A DNA stretch of 64,000 bases from Desulfatiglandales bacterium (GCA_963666345.1 OY762721.1:736001-800000), one strand, 5' to 3'; shown: positions 13,272 to 63,150, numbered from the stretch's first letter. Translations and numbers: made by a program. Notes: generated from the sequence alone by a model not told the origin.

Positions 13272-13300
13272 GGTCGCAGTCCTTATCCTCATCTTTCACC

Positions 13301-14281: not shown

Positions 14282-14322
14282 ACGTCCCATCCTGAAATCT
14301 CTGATTTCCGGATGGGCGTTAA

Positions 14323-17300: not shown

Positions 17301-17445
17301 TCTCGATCAAATAGACCTTAAAACCGGCAGTGGCAAGATCAAGAGAGGCCTGAATCCCGCTGATCCCTCCTCCCACAACCATTACGTCTGCAAAATTACC
17401 TGATCCAAGACCTTTACGAAGCTGTTCAATTTGTTCTTTTCCCAC
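14323..17445 (-). CDS. bamE: BamE (HdrA-like flavoprotein), selenoprotein; UGA at 17232-17230 read as Sec (joins two ORF-track fragments)
   Basis: [31 protein letters not shown] in frame; 7-bp hairpin ATGGTCG-AGGC-CGACCGT 15 nt downstream; CVGSR..YCSAVCC; duplicated HdrA domains. Confidence 0.92.
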
Positions 17446-17520
17446 GTCCGTCCGCCTTTATCAGATTTAAAGACCCTAAAAATCATCCGTATCCGGAATT
17501 AACCCGTTTCATGATAAGCG

Positions 17521-18672: not shown

Positions 18673-18697
18673 GCTCTTTCTCTTTCGCCTTGATGTT

Positions 18698-19237: not shown

Positions 19238-19258
19238 GACGGCTACCACCTCTTCACT

Positions 19259-25420: not shown

Positions 25421-25534
25421 CCCTTTCCGCCTCCTTCTACCATAGTCACAGCAGAATAGAAGGCTTTCAGGGGTGGGTCAATTTTGGACGCCGATTCGCC
25501 CTATAGGTGGGTCATTTTTGCATGCCGATTCACA

Positions 25535-26278: not shown

Positions 26279-26290
26279 TTACCTTTCAAT

Positions 26291-47236: not shown

Positions 47237-48199
47237 ATGGTCCAAGAAATTACAGCACAGGAACTTAACACCGAACAATTCATAGAGGAAAAGGTCAAGG
47301 CGGTCAAGGAGGCCGCAGGGGAAACAACCGCGATAAACGCCCTTTCAGGAGGGGTTGACTCTTCCGTCGTGACAATGCTGGGGCACCTCGCACTTGGCAA
47401 TAAGCTAAGGACAGTTATTATCGAAAATGGCCTGATGCGCCAGGGAGAGCCTGAGCGGGTCTTGGAGCTTTTTCAAAATCTTGGTGTCGCAGTTGAGATA
47501 GTGGACGCACGCAAGGAGTTCTTCTCCGCCCTTGAGGGAATCACAGACCCTGAACAGAAACGCGAGGCGGTCACTCAGACCTTTTATAAAGAGATATTCG
47601 GCCGCATCGTCAGGGAAAGCGGGGCAAAGTGTCTTTTGCAGGGAACCATCCTTACCGATATCGACGAGACCGTCGCGGGAATCAAGCGTCAGCACAATGT
47701 GTTTGCGCAGCTCGGCATCGACCCGCAGGCAACCTTCGGCTACCGGATAATCGAGCCGCTCATTCAGCTCAGAAAGGACGGGGTCAGAAAGGTTGGAAAG
47801 GCCGTGGGGCTGCCTGACGAACTCTTTGATCGTATTCCCTTTCCCGGGCCTGCACTGGCAGCGCGTGTCATAGGGGCAATTACCCCTGAACGCCTGGACA
47901 CGGTCCGCAAGGCGACCGTTATAGTGGAAACATACCTGAAGGATACCTCTGCGTTCCAGTACATGGCGATCCTTCATGAAGACCGCGTGACAGGGATGCG
48001 GGATCACAAGCGGGACTTCGGCCAGCAGATTGAGATTCGCTGCTGGGACAGTGTGGACGCCAGGACGGCAACGCCGACAAGACTGCCTTATGACATGCTT
48101 GAGAATATGGCAGGCGATATTATAGACAGCGTCCCGGGTATCGTCAGCGTCACTTACAACATAGCCTCCAAGCCCCCCTCTACGATAGAGGCGATCTAG
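47237..48199 (+). CDS. Stand-alone GMP synthase ATP-pyrophosphatase (B) subunit-like protein
   Basis: ALSGGVDSSV, DPEQKR, LLQGT, IKRQHNV, PFPGPALA.R, KPPSTIE; no GATase domain; GAGGAGG RBS. Confidence 0.85.
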   Translation: MVQEITAQELNTEQFIEEKVKAVKEAAGETTAINALSGGVDSSVVTMLGHLALGNKLRTVIIENGLMRQGEPERVLELFQNLGVAVEIVDARKEFFSALEGITDPEQKREAVTQTFYKEIFGRIVRESGAKCLLQGTILTDIDETVAGIKRQHNVFAQLGIDPQATFGYRIIEPLIQLRKDGVRKVGKAVGLPDELFDRIPFPGPALAARVIGAITPERLDTVRKATVIVETYLKDTSAFQYMAILHEDRVTGMRDHKRDFGQQIEIRCWDSVDARTATPTRLPYDMLENMAGDIIDSVPGIVSVTYNIASKPPSTIEAI

Positions 48200-48379
48200 C
48201 GACGATTTGCAGACACGGGAAAGCTCTCACCTTTATTCATGCCTATTGGATATAAGGTTCAGCCGAACTTATCTATATTACTTCCTGCCGGTGCCGGACA
48301 GGAACAAAAACCAAGGCACCGGCAGGCCTCAGCATAAGAAACAGCAGGCCCTGTCGCACAGACTACTTTCCTGCCATCC

Positions 48380-48703
48380 GTCTCAAGGCGTCGGCGATAT
48401 GCCCGGCCGAAGCCATGTTTATCGAACAAGTATCTCTGCGTTGTCACTTCGCCGAAGCGGTCAGGGACCCCCCAGCCGCTTGAGCCAGCGTGGTTGATCT
48501 GCACTAAGGGCCTCGCACGCCGCACTGCCAAAGCCTCCTACCGTATTCCGGTTTTCAACCGTAACCACCCCGCCTGTCTTTGAAGCCGATTTAGCACAAG
48601 GGTTTCCAACGTCAAAAGGCTTTACCGAGCTGTAATGGATTAATTCTACGCTGATGTTCTCCGCCTCCGGTTTTCTTGCCGCATCAAAAGAAAATTTCGT
48701 CAT
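48380..48703 (-). pseudogene. Frameshifted transketolase C-terminal-domain fragment
   Basis: SSVKPFD..VVTVEN..GGFGSA..LKRLG / GVPDRFGEV in two frames; no N-terminal part. Confidence 0.7.
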
Positions 48704-48790
48704 ATATCCGGTTGAAAACAGGCCTCAGCCCCAGCCCGTTTACGCCCGCTTGAGACCAATTGGACAGGGCCTGACAGATATGACAAATAA

Positions 48791-48806
48791 ATGAAACCCA
48801 TTTCAT
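48791..48806. promoter_or_regulatory. Auxiliary LacI-type operator
   Basis: atgaaacccatttcat, 14/16 match to the site at 49039. Confidence 0.6.
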
Positions 48807-49038
48807 TTAAAGAAGTCCTTTTCCATAAAGCATAAAAACACAGACCACAAACAAATTTAAAAAAACATTTTGCCTTTATTTTAAAATCAGGGGCATATGA
48901 ATCATAGAGAAATTAACACCTTATAAATACTATGCTTTTTATGTCAAATCAGACATAAAAGATCTTTTAGCATAAAAAAATGCAATGGAAATATTTTTTC
49001 CCAAAAAGATCTTGACACTGAAAAATATTTAAATAATT

Positions 49039-49054
49039 ATGAAACCGGTTTCAT
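49039..49054. promoter_or_regulatory. LacI-type operator (perfect palindrome) downstream of TTGACA at 49012
   Basis: atgaaaccggtttcat with central CG, upstream of the LacI gene. Confidence 0.8.
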
Positions 49055-49120
49055 TAAGTTATCGGACTGTTCATATTTTGCCTTTAATCAAACACCTTAA
49101 CGACTAGAGAGGTGTTAGCC

Positions 49121-50137
49121 GTGGCAATCACCATAACAGAGCTAAGCAAGATCACCGGAGTAAGTCGTTCGACCATCTCCAGGGTCTTGAACAGGCCCCA
49201 CCTGGTAAAACAAGAAACACGCGATCGTGTCCTCAAGGCATTAAAGGACAACAATTACGTCTACAATGCCCTGGCAGGGGGATTGACAAAGAGAAAGACA
49301 GCAACGATCGCAGTCATCCTTCCAACAATTACCAATCCGGTCTTCGCGCTTTCCACAAAAGGTATTCAGGACAAGGCACAAAAACGGGGTTATTCGATAC
49401 TGCTGGGAAGCACGAATTACTCAGGAAAATCGGAATTCAAGCTCTTGACGTTATTTCATGAGAAAAGAATTGATGGAATAGTGTTCACAGGAACCCCCTT
49501 GAGCAAAGAATCGATAGAAATGACCTCACGCTTTGAAATTCCATATGTCATCACCTGGGAAAAATCTGATGAACAGGGTGTTTCCTATGTGGCATTTGAT
49601 AACAAAAAATGCGGTTTCAACGTCACCGAATACCTGATTTCTCTGGGACACAGGCATATAGGCATGATCGCGGGAAAATTCAGTGAGACATCCAGGGCCA
49701 GCAAACGCTGGTTGGGGTATAAAGAGGCCCTCAGCATGAATAGCATCAATTATGACGAAAGTATCGTCATTCAAAAGGGTTACTCAGTGACAAACGGCAA
49801 GGAAGCCGCCGGAAGGCTGCTTCGTGCGCCCGAACGACCCACAGCCATTGTTTGCGCAAACGACATCCTAGCCATAGGTGCCATGGCGGCGGCCAAAGAA
49901 ATGGGCTTAAAGGTCGGGGTAGACGTTTCGATAACCGGATTTGACGATCTTGAGGTTTCCGAAGCTCTTAATCCGTCCCTTACCACTTTTAAAATTCCTG
50001 CATACCGTATGGGGAAAATAGCCGCCCAGGTACTTATTGAAACTATTGAAGGGGAAATCAATGAGCCCCAGCAATACTTGCTGGAACCCAGTCTGGTCAT
50101 TAGAGATTCAACCGGGCAAGCCAAAGAAGTCGAATAG
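49121..50137 (+). CDS. LacI-family regulator (HpsR-like by context)
   Basis: GVSRSTISRVLN HTH; NDILAIG, SITGFDD, PSLTT. Confidence 0.93.
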   Translation: MAITITELSKITGVSRSTISRVLNRPHLVKQETRDRVLKALKDNNYVYNALAGGLTKRKTATIAVILPTITNPVFALSTKGIQDKAQKRGYSILLGSTNYSGKSEFKLLTLFHEKRIDGIVFTGTPLSKESIEMTSRFEIPYVITWEKSDEQGVSYVAFDNKKCGFNVTEYLISLGHRHIGMIAGKFSETSRASKRWLGYKEALSMNSINYDESIVIQKGYSVTNGKEAAGRLLRAPERPTAIVCANDILAIGAMAAAKEMGLKVGVDVSITGFDDLEVSEALNPSLTTFKIPAYRMGKIAAQVLIETIEGEINEPQQYLLEPSLVIRDSTGQAKEVE

Positions 50138-50271
50138 CTTTAAGCAGTAAGGTGTAGCAGAAGACCCAAAAGAGCAGTCAAGGAAACGCAACGTCAAAAA
50201 ATCAAAACCTATGGCATGAATGGAAAAAGCAGGAACAAATAGCTTTTAACCCTAACCAAAAGAGGAACGAC

Positions 50272-50535
50272 ATGGAAGAAAATAGCAGAAGCCAAAAACA
50301 TGAAAAGGCGGTTCGAATGGCGTCCATCATCTGTATCTTTCTTTTTTCACTGTACTTTGTGAATGTCTTTGTTGGAAAGGCGGCGACAGTTTATGGATGG
50401 AAGATTTTCCAGCTTGGTAATGTAGGGGAATTTCTGCTTTTGGTGGCTGCATCGATTTTTCTAGTTGTTGTCGCTCTTTATCGCGAGGCAATGGCAAATG
50501 ACAAAAATCAACGTAACAGCAACGAGGAGGTGTAA
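50272..50535 (+). CDS. Small two-TM membrane protein preceding the TRAP genes
   Basis: GAGGA RBS; two hydrophobic helices, VGEFLLL; stop 2 nt before the next start. Confidence 0.7.
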   Translation: MEENSRSQKHEKAVRMASIICIFLFSLYFVNVFVGKAATVYGWKIFQLGNVGEFLLLVAASIFLVVVALYREAMANDKNQRNSNEEV

Positions 50536-50537
50536 TC

Positions 50538-51695
50538 ATGCCTGATGACAAAAAAGAAGCTAGGGAACTGAAATCGGAAGAAAGACGCCGTTTCATGGAG
50601 CTGACAGCCAAGTTCGGATTCACGGCTGCAGTCCTTGCAATGACAACGGGAGTTCTGGGATCGCGTGAGGCATCTGCGGCGATAGGGAAGGAAGAGAAAG
50701 AGAGGCAGAAAGCCGCTAAGCACACGATGAATATCGCCACGGCCTACATTATCGGTGCATCGCGAAGCTACCCTATCATGCAGTTGGACATGAAAGAGAA
50801 CGTCCAGAACATGACCAGGGGCGATGTTTATGTAAAATTGGCCCCAGGCGGCCAGCTCGGTGCCGGCAGCACCCTGGCCCAAAAGGTTCAGGCAGGGACC
50901 ATTCAGGCCGCACAGCATTCCATTTCCAATTTCGCACCCTTCGCTCCGGCCGTTGATCTTATCAACATCCCTTACTGGTGTGGTGAGAATCAGAAATTCA
51001 TGAATCTGGTTACTTCTGAAACATGGAAAAAAGAAATAGAAGCAAAAGTGGCGGCCAGGGGGTTCAAAGTTCTCATGTATGTATGCATAGACCCACGCAC
51101 CGTGGCCATCCGAAAAGGCATTAAAGGCCCCATTAAAACCCCTGACCAGATGAAAGGCATCAAGTTCCGCGTTCCCGGCTCCAAGCTTCTTCAGCTGTTC
51201 TATAAGCTTGTCGGCGCCAACCCCACTCCGGTCGCATGGGGTGAAACAGCCTCCGCAATCAAGCAGGGTGTTGCAGACGCCCTCGATCCATCGGTGGAAG
51301 CTCTCTATGTCTTTGGTTTCAAGGACATCCTTTCCTATGTCACCTTTAACGCTGCGGTGCCTGACTCACAGGTTTATTCCTGCAACCTGAAGTGGCTTGA
51401 GAGCCTGCCCACAAAAGTGCGCGAGGGAGTCGAATTTGCAGGCGAAGTGACAATGAGGCAGAACCTGGCCAAAGTGCCTGCGGCCCGGGCTTTTGCCATG
51501 GCAGAGCTTGCCAAGTCCGGAGTCGAATTTTATGTCCCCACTGCGGAAGAAAAAAAGCAATGGGTTGAAAAGGCCGGGGCACAACTCCCCGCCTGGGACG
51601 ACATCAAAAAGGAACTGGCAGGATCGCTCAGCCTCTTTGATAGACTGCTGGAAGCGGCCAATACGCCCGGTAATTTCTATGTCCACGACGTGTGA
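50538..51695 (+). CDS. Tat-exported TRAP substrate-binding protein, HpsK-like (DHPS uptake)
   Basis: RRRFM twin-arginine signal; ATAYIIGASRSYPIMQLD, KLAPGGQLGAG resemble roseobacter HpsK (from recall); suyAB context. Confidence 0.8.
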   Translation: MPDDKKEARELKSEERRRFMELTAKFGFTAAVLAMTTGVLGSREASAAIGKEEKERQKAAKHTMNIATAYIIGASRSYPIMQLDMKENVQNMTRGDVYVKLAPGGQLGAGSTLAQKVQAGTIQAAQHSISNFAPFAPAVDLINIPYWCGENQKFMNLVTSETWKKEIEAKVAARGFKVLMYVCIDPRTVAIRKGIKGPIKTPDQMKGIKFRVPGSKLLQLFYKLVGANPTPVAWGETASAIKQGVADALDPSVEALYVFGFKDILSYVTFNAAVPDSQVYSCNLKWLESLPTKVREGVEFAGEVTMRQNLAKVPAARAFAMAELAKSGVEFYVPTAEEKKQWVEKAGAQLPAWDDIKKELAGSLSLFDRLLEAANTPGNFYVHDV

Positions 51696-51769
51696 TTAAA
51701 ATGATGCGTCCAGCGGCGTATGATCCTTTATTGCTGCTGGACGCAAAACACAAACGGGGAGAATGTTAC

Positions 51770-52291
51770 ATGAACATGTCACAGGTTTTGAGGACAATCG
51801 ACAAGGAGGGTGAAAGGTATTTACTCCTGCCCCTCTATGCCTTGATCGTCATAGTAATTTTTAGCGAGGTGATGCGCAGATTTGTCCTGAGCTATTCTTC
51901 CATATGGGCGGAAGAAGTGGCCCGATATGCCTTCATATACGTATCGTGGATCGGCGCCTCGGCAGCCATACGGGAACGGGCGCACATCAGGATTGATGTG
52001 ATATTTCAATTTGTCTCCGAGCGGGGCAAGGGAATTATCTTTATTTTCGGAGATATTGTCACCCTTGCCCTAGCGGTGACGGCATTTTACTGGTCCCTCC
52101 ACCCGGTTTTCACCTCACTCCATTTTGATTCGGTTACGCACGGCTTGAGAATCAGCCAGGCATGGTTTCTCGCTGCTGTACCCTTGGGGTTCGCGATGAT
52201 GACGATCCGCCTTATCCAATCCATCATAAGGGACGTATCCGATGTGAGGGCGAAAAGACCCGTATTCAAGGGCCAAAAGCTATTTGATTAG
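51770..52291 (+). CDS. TRAP small permease DctQ (HpsL-like)
   Basis: WAEEVARY, HIRID; 4 TM. Confidence 0.9.
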   Translation: MNMSQVLRTIDKEGERYLLLPLYALIVIVIFSEVMRRFVLSYSSIWAEEVARYAFIYVSWIGASAAIRERAHIRIDVIFQFVSERGKGIIFIFGDIVTLALAVTAFYWSLHPVFTSLHFDSVTHGLRISQAWFLAAVPLGFAMMTIRLIQSIIRDVSDVRAKRPVFKGQKLFD

Positions 52292-52302
52292 GAGGTGACA
52301 CA

Positions 52303-53616
52303 GTGCTGCAACAATATTTGATGCATCAACAGGATCTCACCCTCGGATGGGACTTTTATTTACCTTTGATTGCGATGGTTGTTCTTATTGCACTGGCCGC
52401 CAGGATCTGGGTGGTGGTTGGTGTAGGCTCGCTGGCAATGCTCCTGGCAACCGGCGTATTGCCCCCCACACTGATGGGCGAAGCCCTGTTCGACGGAATA
52501 GACTCCTTTGCGCTGATCGCGGTTCCCCTCTTCATCCTAACCGGAGACGTGCTGGTTCGAACGGGCCTGTCGAACAAGCTCCTTGATGTGGCGGAGGCGA
52601 CCATGGGCGCCCAGCGTTCAGGGTTGGGTACTTCTACGGTCTTGGGGTGCGGATTTTTTGCATGCATTTCCGGCTCCGACGCGGCGGATGCCGCAGCGAT
52701 CGGACGGATTACAATCCATCGCCTTGAGGAAAAAGGGTACCCCAAACCTTATGCCTGCGCCCTTGTTGCGGCAGGTGCATGCACAGGGATTCTTATTCCA
52801 CCTTCAATTTCCTACATCATAATCGGGCTGGTTTTAGGAATTTCAGCTTCCACCCTGTTTATGGCCGCAGCTATCCCTGGAGTATTAATTCTTTTGTCCA
52901 TCATGGTAACCAACGCAATAGTCAACCGCTTCAAAAGGTACGAAGATTCCAGTAGAGGCTTCAATTTCAAGTACTGGCTCAAGACCATATATGACGGCAA
53001 ATACGCACTGACTATTCCGATTATCATACTTGGGGGCATATACTCAGGCGTCTTCACTCCCACTGAGTCCGCTGCGGTAGCCGCAGCCATAACCATGATC
53101 ATCGGTTTTATCCAGAAAACCATCGGGCTGAAAGATATTCCCAAGATGCTGGAAACCTCAGCCAAGGTGAGCGGGGTGATTGTTCCCATCATTGCTATGT
53201 CCCTTCCCCTTGCACAGACCCTGGCCTCCCTGCAGGTGCCCCAGTATTTCGTGCATACCATGACTTCCCTCACGGAGAACCCCTACCTGATCATGCTGAT
53301 CATGCTGGGAGTTTTGATTATCGCCGGATGTATCATGGAGACCACGCCGAATATCGTGATCCTTGCACCTATTCTTTTGCCCCTGGCCCAGGAAATAGGC
53401 ATGGACGAGATTCATTTCTGTATCTTCTTTGTAACTGCATTGGGAATAGGGTTTATCACACCGCCGATGGGACTCAACCTGTTCGTGGTTTCGGGTGTTA
53501 CCCGTACGCCGGTTCTGTCCATCTCCCGTTATGCGGTGTACTTTGTAATCACCATGTTGATAGTGGAAATTATCATCATGACCGTGCCGTGGATTTCGCT
53601 GTGGCTGATACGCTGA
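52303..53616 (+). CDS. TRAP large permease DctM (HpsM-like)
   Basis: AVPLFILTG, ISGS, ILIPPSI, FTPTESAA, TPPMGLNL. Confidence 0.92.
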   Translation: MLQQYLMHQQDLTLGWDFYLPLIAMVVLIALAARIWVVVGVGSLAMLLATGVLPPTLMGEALFDGIDSFALIAVPLFILTGDVLVRTGLSNKLLDVAEATMGAQRSGLGTSTVLGCGFFACISGSDAADAAAIGRITIHRLEEKGYPKPYACALVAAGACTGILIPPSISYIIIGLVLGISASTLFMAAAIPGVLILLSIMVTNAIVNRFKRYEDSSRGFNFKYWLKTIYDGKYALTIPIIILGGIYSGVFTPTESAAVAAAITMIIGFIQKTIGLKDIPKMLETSAKVSGVIVPIIAMSLPLAQTLASLQVPQYFVHTMTSLTENPYLIMLIMLGVLIIAGCIMETTPNIVILAPILLPLAQEIGMDEIHFCIFFVTALGIGFITPPMGLNLFVVSGVTRTPVLSISRYAVYFVITMLIVEIIIMTVPWISLWLIR

Positions 53617-53666
53617 TGGTTGAAAAATAAACAGATAACTAAAATTAATAACAGGAGAAAAGAAAA

Positions 53667-55547
53667 ATGCCATACGGATATAACGGACGCATACTGCATG
53701 TAAACTTAAGCAAAGGCAAATGGGAGATAGAGGAGCCTGATGAGACCTTTTACAGGGCCTATGTAGGGGGATCAAATTTTGCGGGCTATTATCTGTTAAA
53801 GCATATTAAACCGGGCATAGATCCTCTGTCAGATGAAAATGTCCTTGTCTTTGCATGCAGTGCGGTCACAGGGGCCCCCCTTTCAGGATTCAGCAGGTAC
53901 ACGGTAGCGGCCAAGTCACCGCTGACAGGGGGCTTTGGTGAATCAGAGGCTGGAGGCTACTTCGGCCCTGAGCTCAAATTTGCAGGCTTTGACGCCATCG
54001 TTATAACCGGTAAGGCTCAAGGCCCGGTATACCTATGGATAAAAGACGGGGAGGTGGAGATACGGGACGCATCTCGTCTGTGGGGAAAGGACAACTGGGT
54101 TACCCTTGAGAAGATCTGCGAGGAAAATGAAGACAAGAGGATAAGGGTTGCCTCCATAGGTCCGGCAGGTGAGAGAATGATCCCGTTTGCCAATGTCCAG
54201 AACGACCTGGAGCATTTTAACGGCCGCACCGGCATGGGGGCCGTCATGGGCTCCAAGAACCTCAAGGCAGTAGCTGTGAGGGGAAAGAAGAAGATGGAGA
54301 TGGCGGATCCTGACAAGGTAAAGGAGTTTGCCAAATGGCATGTCAGCTTCCTTAAAAAGCATCCGCCCGCAGTGGGTCTGAGCAAATTCGGAACGACCGG
54401 ACTGGTAAAGCCTCTTAATGATTCAGGCATACTTCCCACCAGGAATTTCAAGGAAGGTGTATTTGAGGGGGCGGACAAGATCGATGCCGATGCCTACCAG
54501 AAGGAGATTTTCCATTCTTCGGGCACCTGCTACGCCTGTGCCGTGAGGTGCAAGAGAAGGGTTGAATCGGACAGCGAGAAATACCCGCTTGACAAACGTT
54601 TCGGCGGCCCTGAATACGAGACCCTTGCATCGCTTGGCTCCCTTATCGGAAACGACAACCTGCTGGCGATAGCGCGCGGAAACCAGATCTGCAACCTTAT
54701 GGGCATGGATACGATCTCGGCGGGATGTGCCATAGCCTTTGCAATGGAGTGCTTTGAAAACGGAGTGCTTACGGAAGAAGACACCGGAGGCAGGGCCATA
54801 CCCTTTGGAGACGGGGATGCAATGATCTGGTTGCTTGAGGAGATCGTTAATCAGAGGGGGATAGGCAAGGTTCTTTCTAAGGGGGTAAAGAGGGCGGCAG
54901 AGGAGATCGGCAGGGGAGCCGAGAAGTATGCCCTTCACATAAAGGGTCAGGAGATGGCCTGTCATGACGGAAGGGGTAAGACCGGTATGGCCATGGGATT
55001 TGCGCTTTCCCCTACGGGCGCGGATCATGTGGAAACGCCCCATGACTCAGCCTTTGCAGCAAGCCCGGGGAACCTGATGCCGCTGGGGATGCTTGAACCG
55101 ATCGACCCCTTTGCCGTTGATGAGTCCAAGGTAAGGTTCTTTGTGCTCGGACAGAAGGCATGGGGACTCAATAACTGCTACGGGTTGTGTAATTTTGCCT
55201 CTGTTCCGCTTCATGGGAATACATTTCCAAAGCTTGTAGAGGCTATAACCGCAATAACGGGATGGGATACCAGCCTCCTTGAGATATTCAAGGTGGCTGA
55301 AAGATCAAATGTAATGGCCAGGATCTTTAATAACAGGGAAGGCTTCGGCCCTGAGGACGACAGGCTGGTGAACCGCTGGCACGAACAGATGCCTGCTGGT
55401 CCGATCAAGGGGCAGTATATCGATAAACAGGATTTTAGAAAGGCCATTGATCTGTACTATGAGATGTCGGGCTGGGATGAGGATGGAAGGCCTAAAAGGT
55501 CAAAACTGATCGAGCTCAACCTGGAATGGCTCATGGAAGATAATTGA
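53667..55547 (+). CDS. W/Mo-dependent aldehyde:ferredoxin oxidoreductase (AOR family)
   Basis: KSPLTG, GFDAI, IGPAGE, GRTGMGAVMGSKNLKA, CYACAVRC, GPEYET, GMDTIS. Confidence 0.92.
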   Translation: MPYGYNGRILHVNLSKGKWEIEEPDETFYRAYVGGSNFAGYYLLKHIKPGIDPLSDENVLVFACSAVTGAPLSGFSRYTVAAKSPLTGGFGESEAGGYFGPELKFAGFDAIVITGKAQGPVYLWIKDGEVEIRDASRLWGKDNWVTLEKICEENEDKRIRVASIGPAGERMIPFANVQNDLEHFNGRTGMGAVMGSKNLKAVAVRGKKKMEMADPDKVKEFAKWHVSFLKKHPPAVGLSKFGTTGLVKPLNDSGILPTRNFKEGVFEGADKIDADAYQKEIFHSSGTCYACAVRCKRRVESDSEKYPLDKRFGGPEYETLASLGSLIGNDNLLAIARGNQICNLMGMDTISAGCAIAFAMECFENGVLTEEDTGGRAIPFGDGDAMIWLLEEIVNQRGIGKVLSKGVKRAAEEIGRGAEKYALHIKGQEMACHDGRGKTGMAMGFALSPTGADHVETPHDSAFAASPGNLMPLGMLEPIDPFAVDESKVRFFVLGQKAWGLNNCYGLCNFASVPLHGNTFPKLVEAITAITGWDTSLLEIFKVAERSNVMARIFNNREGFGPEDDRLVNRWHEQMPAGPIKGQYIDKQDFRKAIDLYYEMSGWDEDGRPKRSKLIELNLEWLMEDN

Positions 55548-55600
55548 TCGGAGTCTGAATCAGTAAAGATAAACGAATAAAACACAAGGGAGGAACAGAT

Positions 55601-56461
55601 ATGTTATTCGGAATTGTTGGAGTCGGAAATATGGGAGGCGGCATTGCCAGAAACCTTATCAGGGCCGGGAAAGATCTACTTATCTATGACATAAATGAAG
55701 AGGCCGCGGCGAAGGTGGCTGAAACAGGACCGACAGGCAAGGTTGCCAAAGGCGTAGATGAATTGGCCGCAGCAGATGTCGTCTTCACAAGCCTTCCCCT
55801 TCCCCAGCATATTGAAGGTGTAATGCTCGGGGATGACGGACTGTTAAACAAGATGAAGAAGGGCTCCACCTATATAGAGGTAAGCACTATCGATCCCAAG
55901 TCAGCCAGAAAACTTTCTGATGCCTGCGATGAAAAAGGGATAGATTTTCTGGAATGTCCTCTGGGCAAGACACCTGCGGCAACGGAAAAGGCGGAAGAAC
56001 CCATCTTTGTAGGCGGAAAAAAAGAGGTATTTGAAAAAATGAAGGACCTGCTCGACATACTAGGATCTGATGCCTACTACATGGGAGAGGTGGAGGCATC
56101 AAGCGCCTTCAAACTCATAAGCAACATGATAGGGATGACCAACCTAGCCGTGCTCGCAGAAGGAATCAGGATCGGAGAAAAGGCCGGCATCGACAAGAAG
56201 ATGCTCATAGAACTTCTGGACGATACAGGCGCCAAGAGCTTCCAGATGGATGTAAGAGGCCCCTGGATAGTTAATGGGGACTTCCAGAATCGCTTCGGAC
56301 TCGATCTCGCCTTAAAGGATGTCAGGCTTGGCTGTGAAATGGCCGACGCCTGGGGAAACGATGCAACTACCATGAAGGTGGCCCTCGACTATTTCAAGAA
56401 GGCAAGTTCCGAAGGCCTAGGAAAAGATGACTGTAACGCGATCTATAAGATAATCAAATAG
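55601..56461 (+). CDS. 3-hydroxyisobutyrate dehydrogenase-family oxidoreductase (candidate DHPS dehydrogenase/sulfolactaldehyde reductase)
   Basis: GIVGVGNMG, STI, PLGKTP, KLISN, KDVRL; context. Confidence 0.85.
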   Translation: MLFGIVGVGNMGGGIARNLIRAGKDLLIYDINEEAAAKVAETGPTGKVAKGVDELAAADVVFTSLPLPQHIEGVMLGDDGLLNKMKKGSTYIEVSTIDPKSARKLSDACDEKGIDFLECPLGKTPAATEKAEEPIFVGGKKEVFEKMKDLLDILGSDAYYMGEVEASSAFKLISNMIGMTNLAVLAEGIRIGEKAGIDKKMLIELLDDTGAKSFQMDVRGPWIVNGDFQNRFGLDLALKDVRLGCEMADAWGNDATTMKVALDYFKKASSEGLGKDDCNAIYKIIK

Positions 56462-56573
56462 TATTATTGCACGAATCTGTTTTTCGATCGTCAGGAAAAA
56501 CGCGTCAGAGTCATACAGTTTGCAAAGGCCTTCCCCGGAATCGTCGGCCTGTATCTCGAATCCGGACATACCC

Positions 56574-56709
56574 GCCCGATATTAGGCTTTGAAACTTAAC
56601 CCAAGCCTAATATTGGGCATTTACTTAATCCTCTTTATCATCTATATTGTATAAGGACATAAAATACAGGATGTTAAGGAAAGCAGGCTCAACTGGCATG
56701 AATGTTGCC
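56574..56709 (+). promoter_or_regulatory. Sigma54 promoter with paired palindromic upstream sites, upstream of suyAB
   Basis: gcccgatattaggc (56574) and gcctaatattgggc (56605); TGGCATGAATGTTGC at 56694. Confidence 0.7.
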
Positions 56710-56963
56710 TTTCAATTTATCCGTAAGCATATATTGCCGGTGAGCAATGGTATAAATTTTACTTGGTTTTGCGTTCAGCGACTTTTTAATTAAGACATTG
56801 TTTATATCCAAGGTCGATGCGTTCGTAAAAAGTCAAATTTCGACTACTTATGATAGATACCGCAGTTTCCATATCGAAACAGATAGCAGGTATCCGGTAG
56901 TATTGTGTAAGATTTTATTTTTATCAATCCAAGCAAACACTAACAATTAATGGAGGAGAAAAA

Positions 56964-57242
56964 ATGACGGATTTTTTGATTCATGAAAAGGCTGACACCG
57001 TAGGTGTGGCCACTGTTGACATCAAGGCCGGTGAAACGGCTGAGGGTCTTTACATGGACACCCAGGAAAAAATCACAAAAAAGGCGCTTCAGGACATACC
57101 TCTTGGCCACAAGATCGCACTGAGGGACCACAAGGTGGACGAAGGCGTGATCAAATACGGTCATGACATCGGCAGGGTGGTTGCCGACTTCAAGGATGGA
57201 GAACATGTCCACATTCACAATCTGAAGACCAGGAGGTGGTAA
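56964..57242 (+). CDS. suyA: Sulfolactate sulfo-lyase small subunit (SAF domain)
   Basis: [41 protein letters not shown]. Confidence 0.85.
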
Positions 57243-57244
57243 GA

Positions 57245-58408
57245 ATGAGTAATCGTAAAGTATTAGGGTATCGAAGAGAAAACGGTCGCGTCGGGATCCG
57301 CAACCATGTCGCAATTCTTCCCCTGGACGATCTGTCCAATGCGGCATGCGAGGCGGTGGCAAACAATATAAAGGGAACCAGGGCACTGCCCCACCCATAC
57401 GGCAGGCTGCAGTTCGGTGAGGATCTTGAGCTGTTTTTCCGCACAATGATAGGCACCGGCTCAAACCCCAATGTAGCTGCCGTCGTTGTAATAGGCATAG
57501 AACCTGAATGGACGAACAGGATAGTGGAAGGAATAAGAAAGACCGGAAAGCCTGCCGAAGGCTTTTCAATTGAGCGTACCGGCGATATCGGCACCATTGC
57601 AAAGGCATCCTGGAAGGCCAAAGAATTCGTCCACTGGGCCTCCGAGCTGAGAAGAGAGGAAGTAGACCTGTCCGAGATCTGGGTATCGGTAAAGTGCGGA
57701 GAGTCCGACACTACTTCAGGCCTCGCATCCAACCCTACGGTTGGAAACGCGATCGACAAGCTGGTGGAAATGGGCGCAACCTGCTCCTTCGGGGAGACCT
57801 CCGAGATCACCGGCGCAGAGGATGTGTGCCAGGCAAGGGCAGCCACGCCGGAGCTTGGTGAGGCCTTCATGAAGATTTGGAACGACTATAATGATTTCAT
57901 AAACGAAAACAAGACGGACGACCTCTCAGGCTCCCAGCCCACCAAGGGAAACATCAGGGGCGGGCTGACCACGATCGAAGAAAAAGCCTTCGGAAACCTC
58001 CAGAAGATCGGCAAGAAGTCCAACTACGTAGGGGTTCTTGGGCCGGCAGAGGCACCAACAGGCCCAGGCCTCTGGTTTATGGACACCTCATCGGCGGCGG
58101 CCGAGGCGGTCACCCTCTGGATGGCGGCAGGCTTCGTATGCCATTTCTTCCCCACCGGTCAGGGTAATATCATCGGCAACCCGATTGAGCCGGTGATCAA
58201 GCTTTCAGCCAATCCGCTGACGGTTTCCACCATGGTCGAGCATATCGATTATGACTGCTCAGGCATACTTCGCGGTGAGATGACACTGGATGAATCCGGG
58301 GATAACCTGCTTAACATGCTTGAGAGGACCTGTAACGGCAGAAGAACTTCTCAGGAGGTACTGGGACATTTCGAATACGTGCTCACCAAACTGTACAGAA
58401 GCGCGTAA
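57245..58408 (+). CDS. suyB: Sulfolactate sulfo-lyase large subunit (UxaA family)
   Basis: [62 protein letters not shown]; ends LTKLYRSA. Confidence 0.88.
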
Positions 58409-58612
58409 GATCTATCTGTTTAGACAATGCGGGGGAATTTCTCCCGCATTGAAACTGAAGCATCGCCTCTCGTCACCTCCTGTCTGCATATGAGTTATGG
58501 TAAGGGTTAAGTTACACGGTTTACAAGATGCCTTGCATCATGGGCCGGTGCGGGATCTGTTATTGAAAAATATATACCTGTAATTGTAAGGGAGGGGATA
58601 ACCGACCAGGAT

Positions 58613-59323
58613 CTAGAAACTGTCGATATCCCATGCATTTTTCAGGTCATCGTAGACGCTTGCGAGATGAAGTTCCATGGCTCTTTTGGCACCCTGTACG
58701 TCATGCTCGCGGATTGCATCAATGGTTGCCTTATGCTGGCGTGCAGACTCAAGTATCCTGCCCGGAATCGAGTGCGTATGCTTGCTGAATGCGGCAAGAT
58801 AGGTAAGGAGGCTCTGCATCAGATCTACTATTATTGTATTTTTTGATATCCTGGCGACACATAGATGAAACTTCCGGTCCAGTTCACCGAACCTGACAAG
58901 GTTGTTTTCCTCCAGCAATATCTTATTTGTTTCTTCGGCAAGAAGGTTCAACTCAGTGATATCCGATTCCTCGCAATTCGCTGCAGCCCATCCGGCAGTG
59001 GAGGTTTCCAGCACTTCTCTAACCTGAAACAGATTCTTGGCCAGATGGCGATTCAGAGTAAGGAGACTTGAAAGCTGACGTGCAACCGTTTCCCCGTTGA
59101 CATCAGCGACAAAGATTCCTGATCGATGCTTTACCTGTAAAATTCCCAGCCCGTTCAAAGTGTTTACAGCATCACGAATAACAGTGCGACTTATATTGAA
59201 ATCGGTCGCCATCTTCCTCTCAGGGGGAAGCCTGTCGCCAGCCTTTAACCGGTGCTGAATTATGTATTTCTCTATTCTACCTACTGCCTGATCTTTGAGG
59301 GACCTTGTTTTTTCCGTGGGCAT
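58613..59323 (-). CDS. GntR/FadR-family regulator
   Basis: GDRLPPER, SRTVIRDA wHTH; FCD domain D..FH, H..H. Confidence 0.93.
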   Translation of the reverse strand: MPTEKTRSLKDQAVGRIEKYIIQHRLKAGDRLPPERKMATDFNISRTVIRDAVNTLNGLGILQVKHRSGIFVADVNGETVARQLSSLLTLNRHLAKNLFQVREVLETSTAGWAAANCEESDITELNLLAEETNKILLEENNLVRFGELDRKFHLCVARISKNTIIVDLMQSLLTYLAAFSKHTHSIPGRILESARQHKATIDAIREHDVQGAKRAMELHLASVYDDLKNAWDIDSF

Positions 59324-59620
59324 GGTTTTCTCGCAAATGAAATATTGAATCGATTTTTATCGTCTCTAAGGTACGCCGTATAGTTAGCAGAAGATAGTGC
59401 ACCCCGCATTTTCTAGACCAACTGAGCTTACACATTCTGTCTATTTTGGTATACCGCATAGGGCTAGCAGCAAGTTTCTTCACTGTCAAGTCGGTTTTAC
59501 GGAATCTTCTGTTTCAACAGGCTGATTTTATTGTCTTCATGCTCCTTTAATAGTACAACTAATTGAAAATACTATTCAATATAATACGATATAAAATTTT
59601 ATGTTTGGCACCATTTTCAC

Positions 59621-59682
59621 TTGACATGCATACCTGCAGTCTGTAAAGAATATTCATTGGTAATACCATTTTGGTAGCACCA
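59621..59682 (+). promoter_or_regulatory. Promoter (TTGACA) with two tandem FadR-type TGGT-N3-ACCA boxes
   Basis: tggtaatacca 59658-59668 and tggtagcacca 59672-59682, between the divergent GntR and sulfatase-like genes. Confidence 0.7.
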
Positions 59683-59752
59683 GATATTTATTTTAGATAA
59701 AGAGATCTTTTACAACCAAAAACATTATTTTATTTCGGGGGGAATAGATACA

Positions 59753-61294
59753 ATGCGTGTTATTCTTATTATATCAGATACCTTTAGGTATGATTTATTG
59801 GCAAAAGAGGGGAAAATGGCCGCCAGCACCCCGGAATTGGATCAACTTATCGAGGATTCGGTGTTTTTCGAACGTCATTACGCCGGAAGCTTCCCCACTG
59901 TTCCGCACCGGTTCGACATGTACACCGGGACATGCGGATTTCCTTACAGGGGATGGGAGATACTCGGACCTAAGGATATTACCCTTGGCGAAATTCTTAT
60001 GGACCACGGCTATATCACGCAACTTATTGCGGATACGGCCAACCTGCTGCGGCGCGGGATGAACTATGATCGCGGCTATCTGGGCTATTATCTTACACGC
60101 GGCCAGGAACGGGATATATACCTCACAAAAATGAACCGCCCTATTGAGTATGTTATTCCTCTTGCCAAGTCTCGCCACACAACCTACTTTCGCGACCACG
60201 CCCAGGTGGATATAGCCAGATGGATCAATGATGAGTGGCTGTGGGAAGAAGACCGCTTTGCGGCACGCACGTGTCAGGTGGCGGGGCGATGGCTTGAATC
60301 AAACTACAAGGAGGAGAACTTCTTTCTGCACCTTGACATGTTTGATCCACATGAGCCGTGGGATCCACCGGAATACTTTGTCGCAAAATATGCCGACCCT
60401 GAATATAAAGGCACACCCATGATGTATCCGAATTACGGCCCGGCCGATATATTTACCGAGGCTGAAATAGACAACATGTCGGCCCACTACAAGGCGGAAG
60501 CTGAAATGACCAGCAAGTGGATAGGCAATGTGATCCGTAAGATAAAAGATGTGGGCATATATGATGAAAGCCTTATCATTTTTGCTAGTGATCACGGCCT
60601 GTACCTGGGCGAGCATAATAGAACCGGTAAGCTTAACATCTCCAAAGATGACAAACGTGGGCCCTGGCCGCTCTATGAAGAGCTGATTCGCGTCCCGTTG
60701 GCCATAAAGATGCCGGGTAACAAACTGGCGGGGAAAAGAATAACTGAGATAGTGCAGCCCGTTGATCTGCTGCCGACTATTCTCGATATTGCAGGCATAT
60801 CGACTGATCAGAAGCTGCCGGCAAAAGCGCTTCTGCCTGATCGCGAAATCATAATGGAAAATCCCGGGATAATCCTAGGCCGCGAGAAAGGCCTGAATCC
60901 CCTTGACGGAAAATCTCTTGTTCCTCTCATGGAAAATGACGCGATTTCATGGGACCGCAGATACGCCTTTTCATCTCAGAAGGTTGGAAGGGTAGGAGGA
61001 CAGACATCAGGGCCTATGCCTGTGCTGCCTGAAGCAGAAGATACAGTAAACTGGATTACCGTTACAGGCAAGCAGCATGCACTGGTAATCGGAGGAAAGC
61101 GGGATGACCTCCCCGAGCTTTACGACCTTGAAAGTGACGGGCGGCAGGCAAATAATATCTTTTCCGAAAAAAGAGAACTTGCCCAGGAGATGGCTGGTGC
61201 CCTCTTCACCTATCTTGAACAGAACAACGTTGAAAGCGACCTTATAGATATTTATCGCACAAGGCTCGATATAGGTGACAAAACCGATGCCTAG
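59753..61294 (+). CDS. Sulfatase-like alkaline-phosphatase-superfamily hydrolase with Thr at the nucleophile position
   Basis: ISDTFRYD, SFPTVPHR..TG, FDPHEPWDPP, SDHG, VDLLPTILD, ELYDL. Confidence 0.85.
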   Translation: MRVILIISDTFRYDLLAKEGKMAASTPELDQLIEDSVFFERHYAGSFPTVPHRFDMYTGTCGFPYRGWEILGPKDITLGEILMDHGYITQLIADTANLLRRGMNYDRGYLGYYLTRGQERDIYLTKMNRPIEYVIPLAKSRHTTYFRDHAQVDIARWINDEWLWEEDRFAARTCQVAGRWLESNYKEENFFLHLDMFDPHEPWDPPEYFVAKYADPEYKGTPMMYPNYGPADIFTEAEIDNMSAHYKAEAEMTSKWIGNVIRKIKDVGIYDESLIIFASDHGLYLGEHNRTGKLNISKDDKRGPWPLYEELIRVPLAIKMPGNKLAGKRITEIVQPVDLLPTILDIAGISTDQKLPAKALLPDREIIMENPGIILGREKGLNPLDGKSLVPLMENDAISWDRRYAFSSQKVGRVGGQTSGPMPVLPEAEDTVNWITVTGKQHALVIGGKRDDLPELYDLESDGRQANNIFSEKRELAQEMAGALFTYLEQNNVESDLIDIYRTRLDIGDKTDA

Positions 61295-61406
61295 GGCGTA
61301 AATACAATCAACTGACAGCGATTAATCGTTGATTACGGCCCTCGTAATAACCACATAATTCATGAAAAATGACACCAGCTCATGATTTTACATGTGAAAA
61401 ACTGAC

Positions 61407-61539
61407 GCCCAATAATAGGCACCCGGACGGGTCATTGCCTATTATTGGGCTTTCTTTTCGGTTGTTTATCTGGTATCAAAACAAAAGATATACAATCACG
61501 CACATTTGCAAAGAAGTAGAATCTGGCACGTAAATTGCT
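61407..61539 (+). promoter_or_regulatory. Sigma54 promoter with paired palindromic upstream sites, upstream of the larA homologue
   Basis: gcccaataataggc (61407) and gcctattattgggc (61437); TGGCACGTAAATTGC at 61524. Confidence 0.75.
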
Positions 61540-61582
61540 GTATGTATTTTAGAAAAATTTTTTTTTGAAAGAGGCCTTTTTG

Positions 61583-62872
61583 ATGGATGTCGAGCTAAAA
61601 TATGGGAAGGGGTCCAGATTGATCAAGATCCCTTCAAAGGCTAAGGTGACCATGCTGAACCCTGCTACCCTTCCTGCATTGGGAAATATTTCAGGGTCAC
61701 TTGATTCGGCCTTGTCCTCCCCGGTAGAACGGCCCGCTCTAGTGGACTATCTTTCGGAAAAAAGGCCCAAAACCATTTCCATTGCCATTTCCGACGAAAG
61801 CAGACCGGTACCGGTCAAAGCCATCATCCCTTCACTCCTCAAGCATCTCTATAAAGCGCTTCCCGGCCTAAAGCCTTCTGACGTGACGATTGTGATAGGA
61901 GGTGGCCTGCATCCGCCCCCCGATAAAGCGGGTATAGAGAGGATCATCCCCTCTTCTCTGACCCAGGGTTGCAGAGTGACGGCACATGATGCCATCTCCT
62001 CGAAAGTCAGCGATTTCGGAGTAACTACGCGCGGAACCCCGGTACGCATAAATCGGGAATTGGCAACTGGTGACTGCAAGATCTCCATCGGCCTCATAGA
62101 CCCCCATCAGTTCGTCGGTTTTACAGGGGGCGCAAAGGGTGTGGTAATAGGCTGTGCCGCCGCGGAAACCATCGAACATAATCACAAGCTCATGTATGAA
62201 GACAACGCCCAGGTCGGCAGGCTGGAGGGCAACCCCGTAAGGGAGGACCTGAATGAGGCGGGGGACCGGGTGGGGATAGATTATGCGATAAATGTGGTGC
62301 TTAACGGGGATAAAAAGGCTGTTGAACTTTTTTGCGGAGAGCCGAAAGCGGTGCTTAAAAAGGGAGCTGCCGTATGTGCCTCCCTGTACGGGGTAGGGAT
62401 AAAGAAAAAGTTTGATATGGTTATTGCGTCATGTGGGGGTTTTCCAAAGGATATCTGTCTGTATCAGGCCCAGAAGGGGCTAAATCTTGCTTCACATGCC
62501 GTTAGGGAAGGTGGGAAAATCCTGCTTCTGGCCGCCTCTTCTCAGGGAGTGGGAGATGACGTTTATTTGGACTATGTCTCGCGCTTTGCAACTCCCCGGG
62601 AGGTTCTTGATGACTTTGCCGAAAGTGGATTCAAGATGGGCGCTCACAAGGCATATCTGTTCGGAAGGACCCTTGCCAGTTATGATGTTGCGGTGGCCTC
62701 CGAGCTCGATGCCGATGTTCTGAGGACCTGCCAGCTCAAGGCCGTAGCCCCTGACTCTACCATTGAGAAATGGGTCAGGGATTTCGAGGGGCGCCCGCGC
62801 GTCGCGGTCGTCCCCAATGCAAATACAACCTATTTTTACCAGGAAGGACTTGAAATAAAGGGGCAAAAATAA
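61583..62872 (+). CDS. LarA-family nickel-pincer hydroxyacid racemase
   Basis: SDESRP, GGLH, PHQFVGFTGGAK, NH, LYQAQKG. Confidence 0.9.
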   Translation: MDVELKYGKGSRLIKIPSKAKVTMLNPATLPALGNISGSLDSALSSPVERPALVDYLSEKRPKTISIAISDESRPVPVKAIIPSLLKHLYKALPGLKPSDVTIVIGGGLHPPPDKAGIERIIPSSLTQGCRVTAHDAISSKVSDFGVTTRGTPVRINRELATGDCKISIGLIDPHQFVGFTGGAKGVVIGCAAAETIEHNHKLMYEDNAQVGRLEGNPVREDLNEAGDRVGIDYAINVVLNGDKKAVELFCGEPKAVLKKGAAVCASLYGVGIKKKFDMVIASCGGFPKDICLYQAQKGLNLASHAVREGGKILLLAASSQGVGDDVYLDYVSRFATPREVLDDFAESGFKMGAHKAYLFGRTLASYDVAVASELDADVLRTCQLKAVAPDSTIEKWVRDFEGRPRVAVVPNANTTYFYQEGLEIKGQK

Positions 62873-63150
62873 GACGGGAGGCCAAAAGGTTTCATCGAAG
62901 TTTGAGCAGGCTTTCAAGAATGAACAATCGAGAAAGAACCGGCTCTTAACTGCCGATTCTTCTAAATCGATGAGGCGAATACCAGAGGCATGAGTTTCTG
63001 CTCACCAGGCCTATCGGGAATGCACAATAATCTTTGGTCCTTACCCGGTTTTTCGGATAAGATTCGGTTTGTAAAGGGGTGCATCTACAATTTAACAGGA
63101 ACGGCTGAGCACTCCGCAGCTTTTCCACTGACGTAAGGAGGCTAGTTACA

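Follow-up and report, generated by a model that had tools for sequence, protein, structure and literature searches.

A 64,000-nt stretch of DNA from a Desulfatiglandales bacterium (GCA_963666345.1, OY762721.1:736001-800000), referred to here as the window, carries what appears to be a two-module locus for respiring the sulfonate of 2,3-dihydroxypropanesulfonate (DHPS). Taken as a whole, we consider this reading reasonably probable. Module 1 (49112-56461) would be controlled by a LacI-family regulator. In it, an HpsKLM-type TRAP transporter would import DHPS, a DhpA-like enzyme would oxidize DHPS with NAD+ to 3-sulfolactaldehyde, and a stand-alone aldehyde:ferredoxin oxidoreductase (AOR) would convert the aldehyde to 3-sulfolactate and pass the electrons to ferredoxin. 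Module 2, consisting of suyAB, larAH and tctCA, would be under the control of sigma-54 and a GAF-domain activator. Here a TTT transporter could import free sulfolactate, a nickel-pincer enzyme of the LarAH5 type would interconvert (S)- and (R)-sulfolactate, and SuyAB would split (R)-sulfolactate into pyruvate and sulfite, the latter to be reduced by the dissimilatory sulfite reductase. The wider proposal, that in several Thermodesulfobacteriota lineages a tungsten-type sulfolactaldehyde:ferredoxin oxidoreductase replaces the aldehyde dehydrogenase SlaB and LarAH5 racemizes (S)- to (R)-sulfolactate, is a tentative one, falling somewhat short of probable.

Nine reading frames in one orientation (+) were found at 49112-58408 by open reading frame (ORF) listing and Pfam and NCBIfam scans. 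The first encodes the LacI-family regulator (49112-50137; Pfam LacI and Peripla_BP_3), a probable repressor of the DHPS uptake and oxidation operon. It is followed by a gene for a small membrane protein of 87 amino acids with two hydrophobic transmembrane helices in its translation (50272-50535), and by putative hpsK, hpsL and hpsM for the TRAP binding protein (DctP; 50538-51695), the small permease (51692-52291; Pfam DctQ, 104 bits) and the large permease (52303-53616; Pfam DctM, 314 bits; TIGR00786, 335 bits). Then come the genes for a 626-aa protein of the tungsten-type AOR family (53667-55547; AFOR_N, 258 bits; AFOR_C, 416 bits) and for a 286-aa dhpA-like, NAD-dependent dehydrogenase of the HIBADH family (55601-56461; NAD_binding_2, 116 bits; NAD_binding_11, 72 bits). 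The last two are suyA (56964-57242; Pfam SAF, weak match) and suyB (57236-58408; GD_AH_C, 279 bits; GD_AH_second, 117 bits), for the predicted SAF small subunit and UxaA-family large subunit of (2R)-sulfolactate sulfo-lyase.

The genes and their common orientation were thus as described in the initial annotation. The gaps between hpsM and the AOR gene (50 nt) and between the AOR gene and the dehydrogenase gene (53 nt) fit a single operon. On the other hand, about 500 bp of non-coding DNA (56462-56963) lie between the dehydrogenase gene and suyA, so suyAB is probably a transcription unit of its own. No riboswitch was found in this gap by an Rfam search of 48000-64000 (E up to 0.1). The sole match in that range, BjrC68, was below threshold (25 vs 39 bits) and was taken as chance. 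Scans for sigma-70 promoters (23 vs 16.2 +/- 3.9 in shuffles) and terminators (17 vs 14.6 +/- 3.5) did not rise above the shuffles and were not used.

The function of the AOR was approached through its gene neighbourhood. An AOR scan of one genome per species gave 79 loci, to which the window proteins were compared by tblastn (>50% coverage, E<1e-6). At 21 loci the AOR was at least 61% identical to that of the window, and at 17 of these it was adjoined by a dhpA-like orthologue (60-76% identity); suyB was present at 12 and an aldehyde dehydrogenase (ALDH) at two. The dehydrogenase was missing from four, one of which is a 2.7-kb contig. At the other 58 loci the AOR was at most 55% identical, and only one of them, the Desulfovibrio locus L033, had pathway genes: suyAB, a dehydrogenase, an ABC transporter, a cupin, the AOR and an ALDH of the GabD/SSADH type (741 bits). 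The gene order varied (AOR-dhpA, dhpA-AOR, or the two split by TRAP genes), which indicated that the linkage had survived rearrangements. The same gene set recurred together in about 20 other loci, so the arrangement is not due to chance.

The phylogeny agreed with the neighbourhoods. In a maximum-likelihood tree of 89 AORs, the window protein fell in a clade of 22 (SH-aLRT 100), of which 18 were linked to dhpA. In a tree enlarged to 105 AORs with additions from the phylum sample described below, the core clade had 24 tips (SH-aLRT 100; 18 linked) and its sister subclade 10 (three linked), and the smallest clade with all linked AORs had 42 tips, half of them (21) linked, with a support of 92. 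The linkage label required 7 changes on the tree, against a shuffled mean of 19.4, and none of 500 shuffles was as low. Phylogeny and neighbourhoods, the check proposed in the initial annotation, thus showed a specific association of the AOR with the dhpA-like gene that extends over many genomes. The link was strong, not universal.

The dehydrogenase, SuyB and LarAH also served as queries against 400 further genomes of the phylum, a sample independent of the first. DhpA of at least 63% identity was found in four, and in three of them the AOR gene was directly adjacent and was preceded by an orthologue of the window LacI (50-54% identity). In the fourth genome the dhpA-like gene lay 212 nt from the contig end. 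Four genomes had HIBADH homologues at 45-46% identity next to a glycyl-radical enzyme cluster; these were not taken for DhpA. The three LacI-AOR-dhpA trios (L136 in genome G173, L137 in G142 and L138 in G290) were followed on the 3' side by an ABC transporter of the NMT1/SsuA type in L136 and L138; L137 is a 5.1-kb contig that ends earlier. The dhpA copy of G290 is broken by two stop codons. Orthologues of the LacI protein at these identities also preceded the AOR in L141, and L018 held another (53% identity).

The substrate was indicated by the TRAP binding protein. The window HpsK matched PDB entries 24GC-24GF with 517 bits (E 2e-154). These are structures of the Ruegeria pomeroyi protein, RpHpsK, which was reported to bind both DHPS enantiomers at 5-9 nM (Barber 2026, PMC13335735). 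DHPS is contacted there by Y75, S125, N128, R184, R207, D272 and Q274, with the sulfonate held by two arginines, Ser and Asn among these residues (PMC13335735). In the alignment all seven were kept in the window protein, as Y78, S128, N131, R187, R211, D276 and Q278. They were also kept in four orthologues from related loci, a fifth being cut by the contig end. Counted on the alignment, the window HpsK was about three-quarters identical to the R. pomeroyi type. DHPS is therefore a well supported candidate for the substrate, as judged from homology and ligand residues.

The R. pomeroyi type of HpsK was found at five other loci (L011, L013, L017, L019 and L043). A sixth, L012, showed a DctM matching this type, and L015 only the small upstream ORF before the contig ended. 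This small ORF with two transmembrane helices was kept (35-47% identity) directly 5' of the orthologous hpsK at L011, L013, L015, L017, L019 and L043; the 87-aa window protein had no family match in Pfam or NCBIfam. At three loci the AOR-dehydrogenase pair was adjoined by the Bilophila wadsworthia type of HpsK instead (L007, with 384 bits to 24GG/24GH, L022 and L004), which is unrelated to the R. pomeroyi type and selective for S-DHPS. At L005, L033, L136 and L138 the pair occurred with ABC systems of the NMT1/SsuA type. An SsuA/TauT-type ABC system is the uptake type reported for Desulfovibrio sp. DF1 (PMC6278857). By homology, then, three types of DHPS or sulfonate importer are recruited to the same AOR-dhpA enzyme pair. 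This convergence is the strongest reason to assign DHPS and its aldehyde to the pair.

The AOR itself had the features expected of the family. The AFOR_N and AFOR_C matches covered the full profile lengths, and the protein aligned over its full length with the Pyrococcus furiosus AOR (1AOR; 412 bits). The cysteines of the [4Fe-4S] cluster were kept (C288, C291 and C295, in CYAC..C, and C508), as were the equivalents of E313 and H448, the Glu of GPEYE and the His of GADH. The roles of these residues as cluster ligands and catalytic Glu and His are presumed from the 1AOR literature. In both pterin-binding DxxGL(C/D) motifs of 1AOR, the first Asp is replaced by Asn (N343 and N503). The window protein resembled 1AOR and the bacterial AORs 8C0Z and 9MQX in its two Pfam domains, its CxxCxxxC...C ligands and its catalytic Glu and His, and P. 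furiosus AOR also in having no extra subunit genes beside it. Unlike these three, it is embedded in a dedicated catabolic operon. Thirty-one positions set its clade apart from the nearest relatives, for example Arg376 in place of Ile, Leu or Val; no sulfonate pocket is claimed from them.

The dehydrogenase scored below every NCBIfam equivalog cut-off. It gave 405 bits to PDB 9K2J and was 62% identical to the HIBADH protein of L033, a Desulfovibrio locus with DF1-like gene content. Its predicted action on DHPS follows from its family, its context and the characterized DF1 enzyme.

The step after the dehydrogenase is known from DF1, in which DhpA, SlaB and SuyAB have been established (Burrichter et al. 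2018, PMC6278857). The initial annotation had placed the AOR where SlaB acts in that strain, and had stated that neither an ALDH nor HpsN is encoded here. For the window this was correct: no SSADH/GabD-type (SlaB-like) ALDH and no HisD-family HpsN were found in it. For SlaB it was correct genome-wide. The host genome is closed (one contig of 4.16 Mb, 96.7% complete), and Pfam Aldedh detected only two genes in it, both far from the locus and neither of the SSADH/GabD type. One was ProA; the other, an ALDH of MMSDH-like character, scored 396 bits and so missed the cut-off of 448. The linkage and context of the AOR gene, together with a genome lacking a SlaB-type ALDH, make it fairly likely that the enzyme is a sulfolactaldehyde:ferredoxin oxidoreductase.

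The MMSDH-like gene belongs to a paralogous cluster at C1:3.91 Mb (L092:4143-16162), with a TAXI-type TRAP transporter, a second HIBADH gene, an AcnX-like pair, a second SAF/UxaA pair and a distant LarA-like gene. The HIBADH protein of this cluster was 28% identical to the window dehydrogenase.

For HpsN the statement did not hold beyond the window. A second HisD-family gene in the genome, at C1:3660860 and 2.9 Mb away, is HpsN-like: it scored 412 bits to sulfopropanediol 3-dehydrogenase (PDB 8V35), 377 to (R)-DHPS dehydrogenase (8WWE) and 255 to histidinol dehydrogenase. It lies in a cluster (L091:7739-16557) with LacI, TctC-TctB-TctA, sulfatase, SDR and hydroxyacyl-CoA-dehydrogenase-like genes. 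This sulfatase is the second one observed, and candidates for the substrate of the cluster are DHPS, cysteinolate or a sulfate ester. By its similarity, the HpsN-like enzyme could oxidize (R)-DHPS straight to sulfolactate, so the AOR need not be the sole route from DHPS to sulfolactate.

The HpsN-like gene is one of several observations that weigh against the proposed role of the AOR. In the only assay published for a member of the clade, the recombinant DF1 AOR, made in E. coli, was reported to be inactive with sulfolactaldehyde, and also with lactaldehyde and acetaldehyde (PMC6278857). The AOR coexists with an SSADH-type ALDH in DF1 (PMC6278857), L017, L019 and L033, and the two may therefore not be simple substitutes. 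In L112 and L114, hpsN and an SDR gene directly follow suyAB. In the phylum sample, the three genomes with the LacI-AOR-dhpA trio lacked SuyB at E<=1e-80, and neither AOR nor dhpA was found near suyAB in any of the 17 SuyB-bearing genomes. No dhpA stood beside the AOR in six of the 24 core-clade members and seven of the 10 in the sister subclade. AORs are, besides, often broad-range enzymes. Finally, RnfC scored 161 bits against a cut-off of 246, and none in the genome was over the cut-off, so no Rnf route is claimed for the ferredoxin.

From the first four of these observations one may suppose that the AOR is an accessory, broad-range scavenger guarding the cell against reactive aldehyde that leaks out, or an enzyme for one enantiomer, and that sulfolactate is made mainly by the HpsN-like enzyme at 3.66 Mb, a four-electron dehydrogenase, or by another. 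We think this unlikely, though to be taken seriously. The HpsN-like gene stands in a separately regulated cluster with a sulfatase and a TTT transporter of its own, and HpsN homologues in sulfate reducers were reported to act also on L-cysteinolate (Liu et al. 2025, PMC12814064). If the AOR were simply a scavenger, there would be little reason for it to remain beside dhpA across rearrangements and three transporter types. In addition, DhpA alone stops at the aldehyde (PMC6278857), so a dhpA operon without an aldehyde-oxidizing enzyme would make little sense.

The assignment of the AOR to sulfolactaldehyde, made in the initial annotation, has been in print as a proposal since 2018. The DF1 AOR is DHPS-inducible and co-encoded with dhpA and slaB, and was proposed as a second candidate for sulfolactaldehyde oxidation; its role 'remained unclear' to its authors (Burrichter et al. 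2018, PMC6278857). In a full-text literature search judged by title and abstract, this was the only relevant paper on AOR and sulfolactaldehyde or DHPS among the matches listed. What is new here is the clusters without SlaB, a closed genome without a SlaB-type gene, and the breadth of the AOR-dhpA linkage. The label 'energy-conserving' given to this variant found no support in the RnfC result. We suppose only that, by yielding reduced ferredoxin, the AOR would render the oxidation of DHPS less wasteful than it is in the all-NAD route.

The AOR-dhpA pair could also belong to a different flow of carbon. It might handle intracellular sulfolactaldehyde from a sulfosugar pathway, with the HIBADH protein as a YihU-like reductase, or the AOR might run backwards as a ferredoxin-driven sulfolactate reductase. 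AORs can reduce acids. In one contig of a metagenome-assembled genome (L004:3399-10716), genes for a class II aldolase and a PFK-family kinase came after AOR-dhpA, and the pair faced an RpiB-like isomerase and a split transketolase (C-terminal subunit). This gene order suggests that at L004 a sulfosugar pathway feeds the same pair. A PfkB kinase also followed the AOR in L014. For the window, however, such a role is improbable. No sulfoglycolytic aldolase, kinase or isomerase was found near the cluster, YihU (PDB 6SM7) scored only 92 bits against the dehydrogenase, and the transporter is of the uptake kind, its binding protein matching one that binds DHPS.

Sulfolactate formed by the AOR would be cleaved by SuyAB. 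suyA and suyB overlap at 57236-57242. SuyA was 47-77% identical to the small ORF that precedes suyB in related loci. SuyB homologues are 387 aa long, so the start of SuyB is probably three codons after 57236. Among the matches listed, SuyB was 82-89% identical to the nearest non-identical proteins, one shorter entry reached 95% identity over 95% of the query, and many relatives were named (2R)-sulfolactate sulfo-lyase subunit beta by JGI, which is an annotation and not an assay. The genome also has DsrA (574 bits), so the sulfite could be respired. The earlier description of a locus leading from DHPS through sulfolactate to pyruvate and sulfite was thereby upheld by the HpsK ligand residues, the DhpA-like dehydrogenase and the identity of SuyAB to named lyases.

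One could also imagine a cluster for a non-sulfonated diol or hydroxy acid (glycerate, tartronate semialdehyde or a sugar acid) with a UxaA-type dehydratase. The dehydrogenase and SuyB gave sub-threshold NCBIfam hits to 2-hydroxy-3-oxopropionate reductase (163 bits, cut-off 397) and galactarate dehydratase (145 bits, cut-off 731), respectively, and the genome has the paralogous ALDH-HIBADH-SAF/UxaA cluster described above. Against this, the residues that hold the sulfonate are among the seven kept in HpsK, SuyB was far closer to its sulfo-lyase-annotated relatives than to the genome's own UxaA paralogue (36% identity), and two unrelated types of DHPS-binding protein are recruited to the same enzymes. 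We regard a non-sulfonated substrate as highly improbable.

The downstream half of the locus, with LarAH5, the TTT transporter and sigma-54 control, was missing from the earlier account. After suyB come a GntR/FCD regulator gene (58613-59323, -; Pfam GntR and FCD) and a Sulfatase-family gene (59753-61294, +; Pfam Sulfatase, 101 bits). They are followed by larAH (61565-62872, +; Pfam Lar_N and LarA_C), a LarA-superfamily gene for the proposed sulfolactate racemase, and by tctC (63151-64000, +; Pfam TctC, 132 bits), for a TTT-family binding protein proposed to serve sulfolactate uptake, which runs off the window. TctA follows in the same genome (L094:1181-2731). LarAH passed the LarAH5 equivalog model NF052595 (542 bits, cut-off 462) and gave 236 bits to Mar2 (PDB 6D6Z). 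The genes for the nickel-pincer cofactor were present in the genome, all over their cut-offs (LarC, 459 bits; LarB, 297; LarE-family, 294).

The position of larAH was conserved. It stood (55-68% identity) directly 5' of suyAB in nine of the 11 related loci for which upstream DNA was available. In these other genomes larAH and suyAB were contiguous, without the inserted sulfatase; in the window, the GntR/FCD and sulfatase genes lie between them. In the phylum sample, SuyB of at least 65% identity was found in 17 of the 400 genomes. Within the fetched stretch around it, LarAH was present in 7, the activator homologue in 10 and the TTT transporter in 8, and a SlaB-type ALDH near suyAB in none of the 17. 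Conversely, LarAH of at least 46% identity was found in nine genomes, in seven of them within 12 kb of suyAB; the other two had no SuyB.

3-Sulfolactate is the sulfonate analogue of malate. The wiring of larAH to suyAB and the TTT transporter points to 3-sulfolactate as the substrate. The window LarAH is like LarAH5/Mar1 of Desulfitobacterium hafniense in passing the LarAH5 model. With L-malate, Mar1 shows a KM of 55 mM, and the authors of that work put malate as its native substrate in doubt (Desguin et al. 2020, PMC7583248). What sets larAH in the window apart from Mar1 is its connection, through gene position and common sigma-54 control, with suyAB and a TTT transporter. From this context we consider larAH probably a sulfolactate racemase.

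The stereochemistry would also call for such an enzyme. According to Liu et al. 2025 (PMC12814064), HpsN converts (R)-DHPS to (R)-sulfolactate, which means that the stereo-descriptor does not change in the oxidation. Sulfoglycolysis gives mainly (S)-DHPS (Barber 2026, PMC13335735), and SuyAB is named as (2R)-specific. We infer from these three points that a racemase would be needed at the level of sulfolactate.

The suyAB and larAH-tctCA genes appeared to share a control system. Upstream of suyA is a pair of 14-bp near-palindromic sites, GCCCGATATTAGGC and GCCTAATATTGGGC (56574-56618), a putative enhancer for a sigma-54 activator, followed by a -24/-12-like element, TGGCATGAATGTTGCC (56694-56709, +), with two mismatches and with GG and GC kept. 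Before larAH there is a second pair of the site, GCCCAATAATAGGC twice and inverted (61407-61450), followed by a predicted sigma-54 promoter, TGGCACGTAAATTGCT (61524-61539, +). This was the only match in the 64-kb window with no mismatch to TGGCACN5TTGCW. The paired 14-bp GCCCAATAWTAGGC sites were thus common to the two promoter regions. In both, the two copies were spaced by 30-31 bp and stood 74-76 nt upstream of the sigma-54 element (76 nt at suyA). The entire genome contains 7 copies of the 14-bp site. Five of these fall in the 11.3-kb region (C1:792574-803907) between suyA and the activator gene; a reversed control pattern occurred twice.

A loose sigma-54 pattern (two mismatches) was not enriched (26 matches vs 29 expected), and use was made solely of the one perfect match and of the element with the same arrangement of upstream sites. 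Of 7 related loci, 6 had an element with one mismatch ahead of larAH. The genome has RpoN (433 bits), and a divergent gene for a GAF/sigma-54 activator, identified by NCBIfam hits, follows tctA (L094:3206-4753, -). Activators of this type, with GAF, Sigma54_activat and HTH_8 by Pfam, were also present in L007 and L015. We interpreted suyAB and larAH-tctCA as being under putative shared control by sigma-54 and this activator. The fifth 14-bp copy was located at L094:4895, between the activator gene and a ThiS/MoaD-like and MoeB-like pair (5127-6224). By its position, this site might tie sulfur transfer for a pterin cofactor to the same regulon.

We compared the locus with the systems it resembles. 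With DF1 it shares an anaerobic, sulfite-respiring host, a HIBADH-family DHPS dehydrogenase, a split SuyAB and an AOR co-encoded with dhpA; the AOR of L033, with its DF1-like gene content, is in the same clade as the window AOR, and orthology with the DF1 proteins is indirect. It differs from DF1 in having no SSADH-type SlaB in the cluster or the closed genome, in uptake (HpsK-type TRAP instead of SsuA/TauT-type ABC), in having suyAB at the same locus and not on another contig, and in the attached LarAH racemase, TTT transporter and sigma-54 control.

With the HpsKLM-HpsNOP-SuyAB pathway of Cupriavidus pinatubonensis and R. pomeroyi it shares the R. pomeroyi-type HpsK, sulfolactate as the product and the SuyAB lyase. 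Unlike that pathway, it has no HpsN, HpsO or HpsP at the locus. The oxidation would be split into a two-electron NAD step and the proposed ferredoxin step, and the inversion would occur at the level of sulfolactate (LarAH) rather than of DHPS (HpsO/HpsP). The HpsK cluster with HpsNOP neighbourhoods has been placed in Alpha-, Beta- and Gammaproteobacteria, not in anaerobes (Barber 2026, PMC13335735).

A known system comparable to module 2 is the SlcC/ComC system of Chromohalobacter salexigens, reportedly described by Denger and Cook in 2010, which is said to combine racemization of sulfolactate by two NAD(P)-dependent dehydrogenases via sulfopyruvate, giving (R)-sulfolactate for SuyAB, with uptake by SlcHFG (TTT). 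The supply of (R)-sulfolactate to SuyAB and a TTT-family uptake system are common to both. Unlike SlcC/ComC, a single nickel-pincer enzyme is proposed here for the racemization. A literature search linking sulfolactate, LarA and racemase gave only false hits among the matches listed, and the string 'sulfo' was absent from the available text of the LarA paper PMC7583248 and its 2024 follow-up PMC11770544. A D. hafniense proteome paper (PMC9888536) was irrelevant, as 'DHPS' there stands for dihydropteroate synthase. We class the locus as a new form of the oxidative DHPS pathway already described, with a probable nickel-pincer sulfolactate racemase as an element that is unpublished as far as we searched.

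In the phylum sample, each of the six genomes from the same family lacked all four proteins (SuyB, the AOR, LarAH and the dehydrogenase) at the search thresholds. The window HpsK was closest to an alphaproteobacterial binding protein. These two observations suggested that the locus was probably acquired horizontally. Metatranscriptome contigs from four marine-sediment runs of one study matched parts of most of the locus genes at 95-100% identity, and one contig spanned the hpsM/AOR junction; another, at the AOR/dhpA junction, reached just 19 letters into the AOR gene and was disregarded. These matches represent presence in RNA libraries only and are not proof of transcription.

Elsewhere in the window, another AOR-family gene (19259-21265, -) was found with HdrA-like, CCG/HdrB-like, MvhD-like and NuoE/F-like genes (10294-21265), and two BcrAD/BadFG ATPase genes lie further off (3193-5004). 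Together they resemble a gene set of the class II benzoyl-CoA reductase type (Bam). IS21-type istA/istB and a phage-type integrase gene (23185-27529) separate this Bam-like cluster from the remainder of the window.

Few organosulfur compounds are as abundant as DHPS and the sugar from which it derives, sulfoquinovose; when anaerobes degrade them, they contribute to the formation of sulfide in sediments and guts. If the reading of the AOR is true, it would explain the DHPS-induced AOR of Desulfovibrio DF1 and add a sulfonated substrate to the AOR family. The electron balance of DHPS oxidation would then be one NADH plus reduced ferredoxin, not two NADH, and sulfonate respiration would be predicted to depend on tungsten. 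The link of LarAH5 with suyAB offers a testable native substrate for a group whose published substrate, malate (KM 55 mM), was doubted by those who discovered it. If the racemase reading is true, the (S)-DHPS from sulfoglycolysis would reach the (R)-specific lyase without the SlcC/ComC pair, and if both enzyme readings are true, the native substrate of the LarAH5 group would be named. The shared 14-bp site and the sigma-54 promoters may serve as a regulon marker for sulfolactate genes in other genomes.

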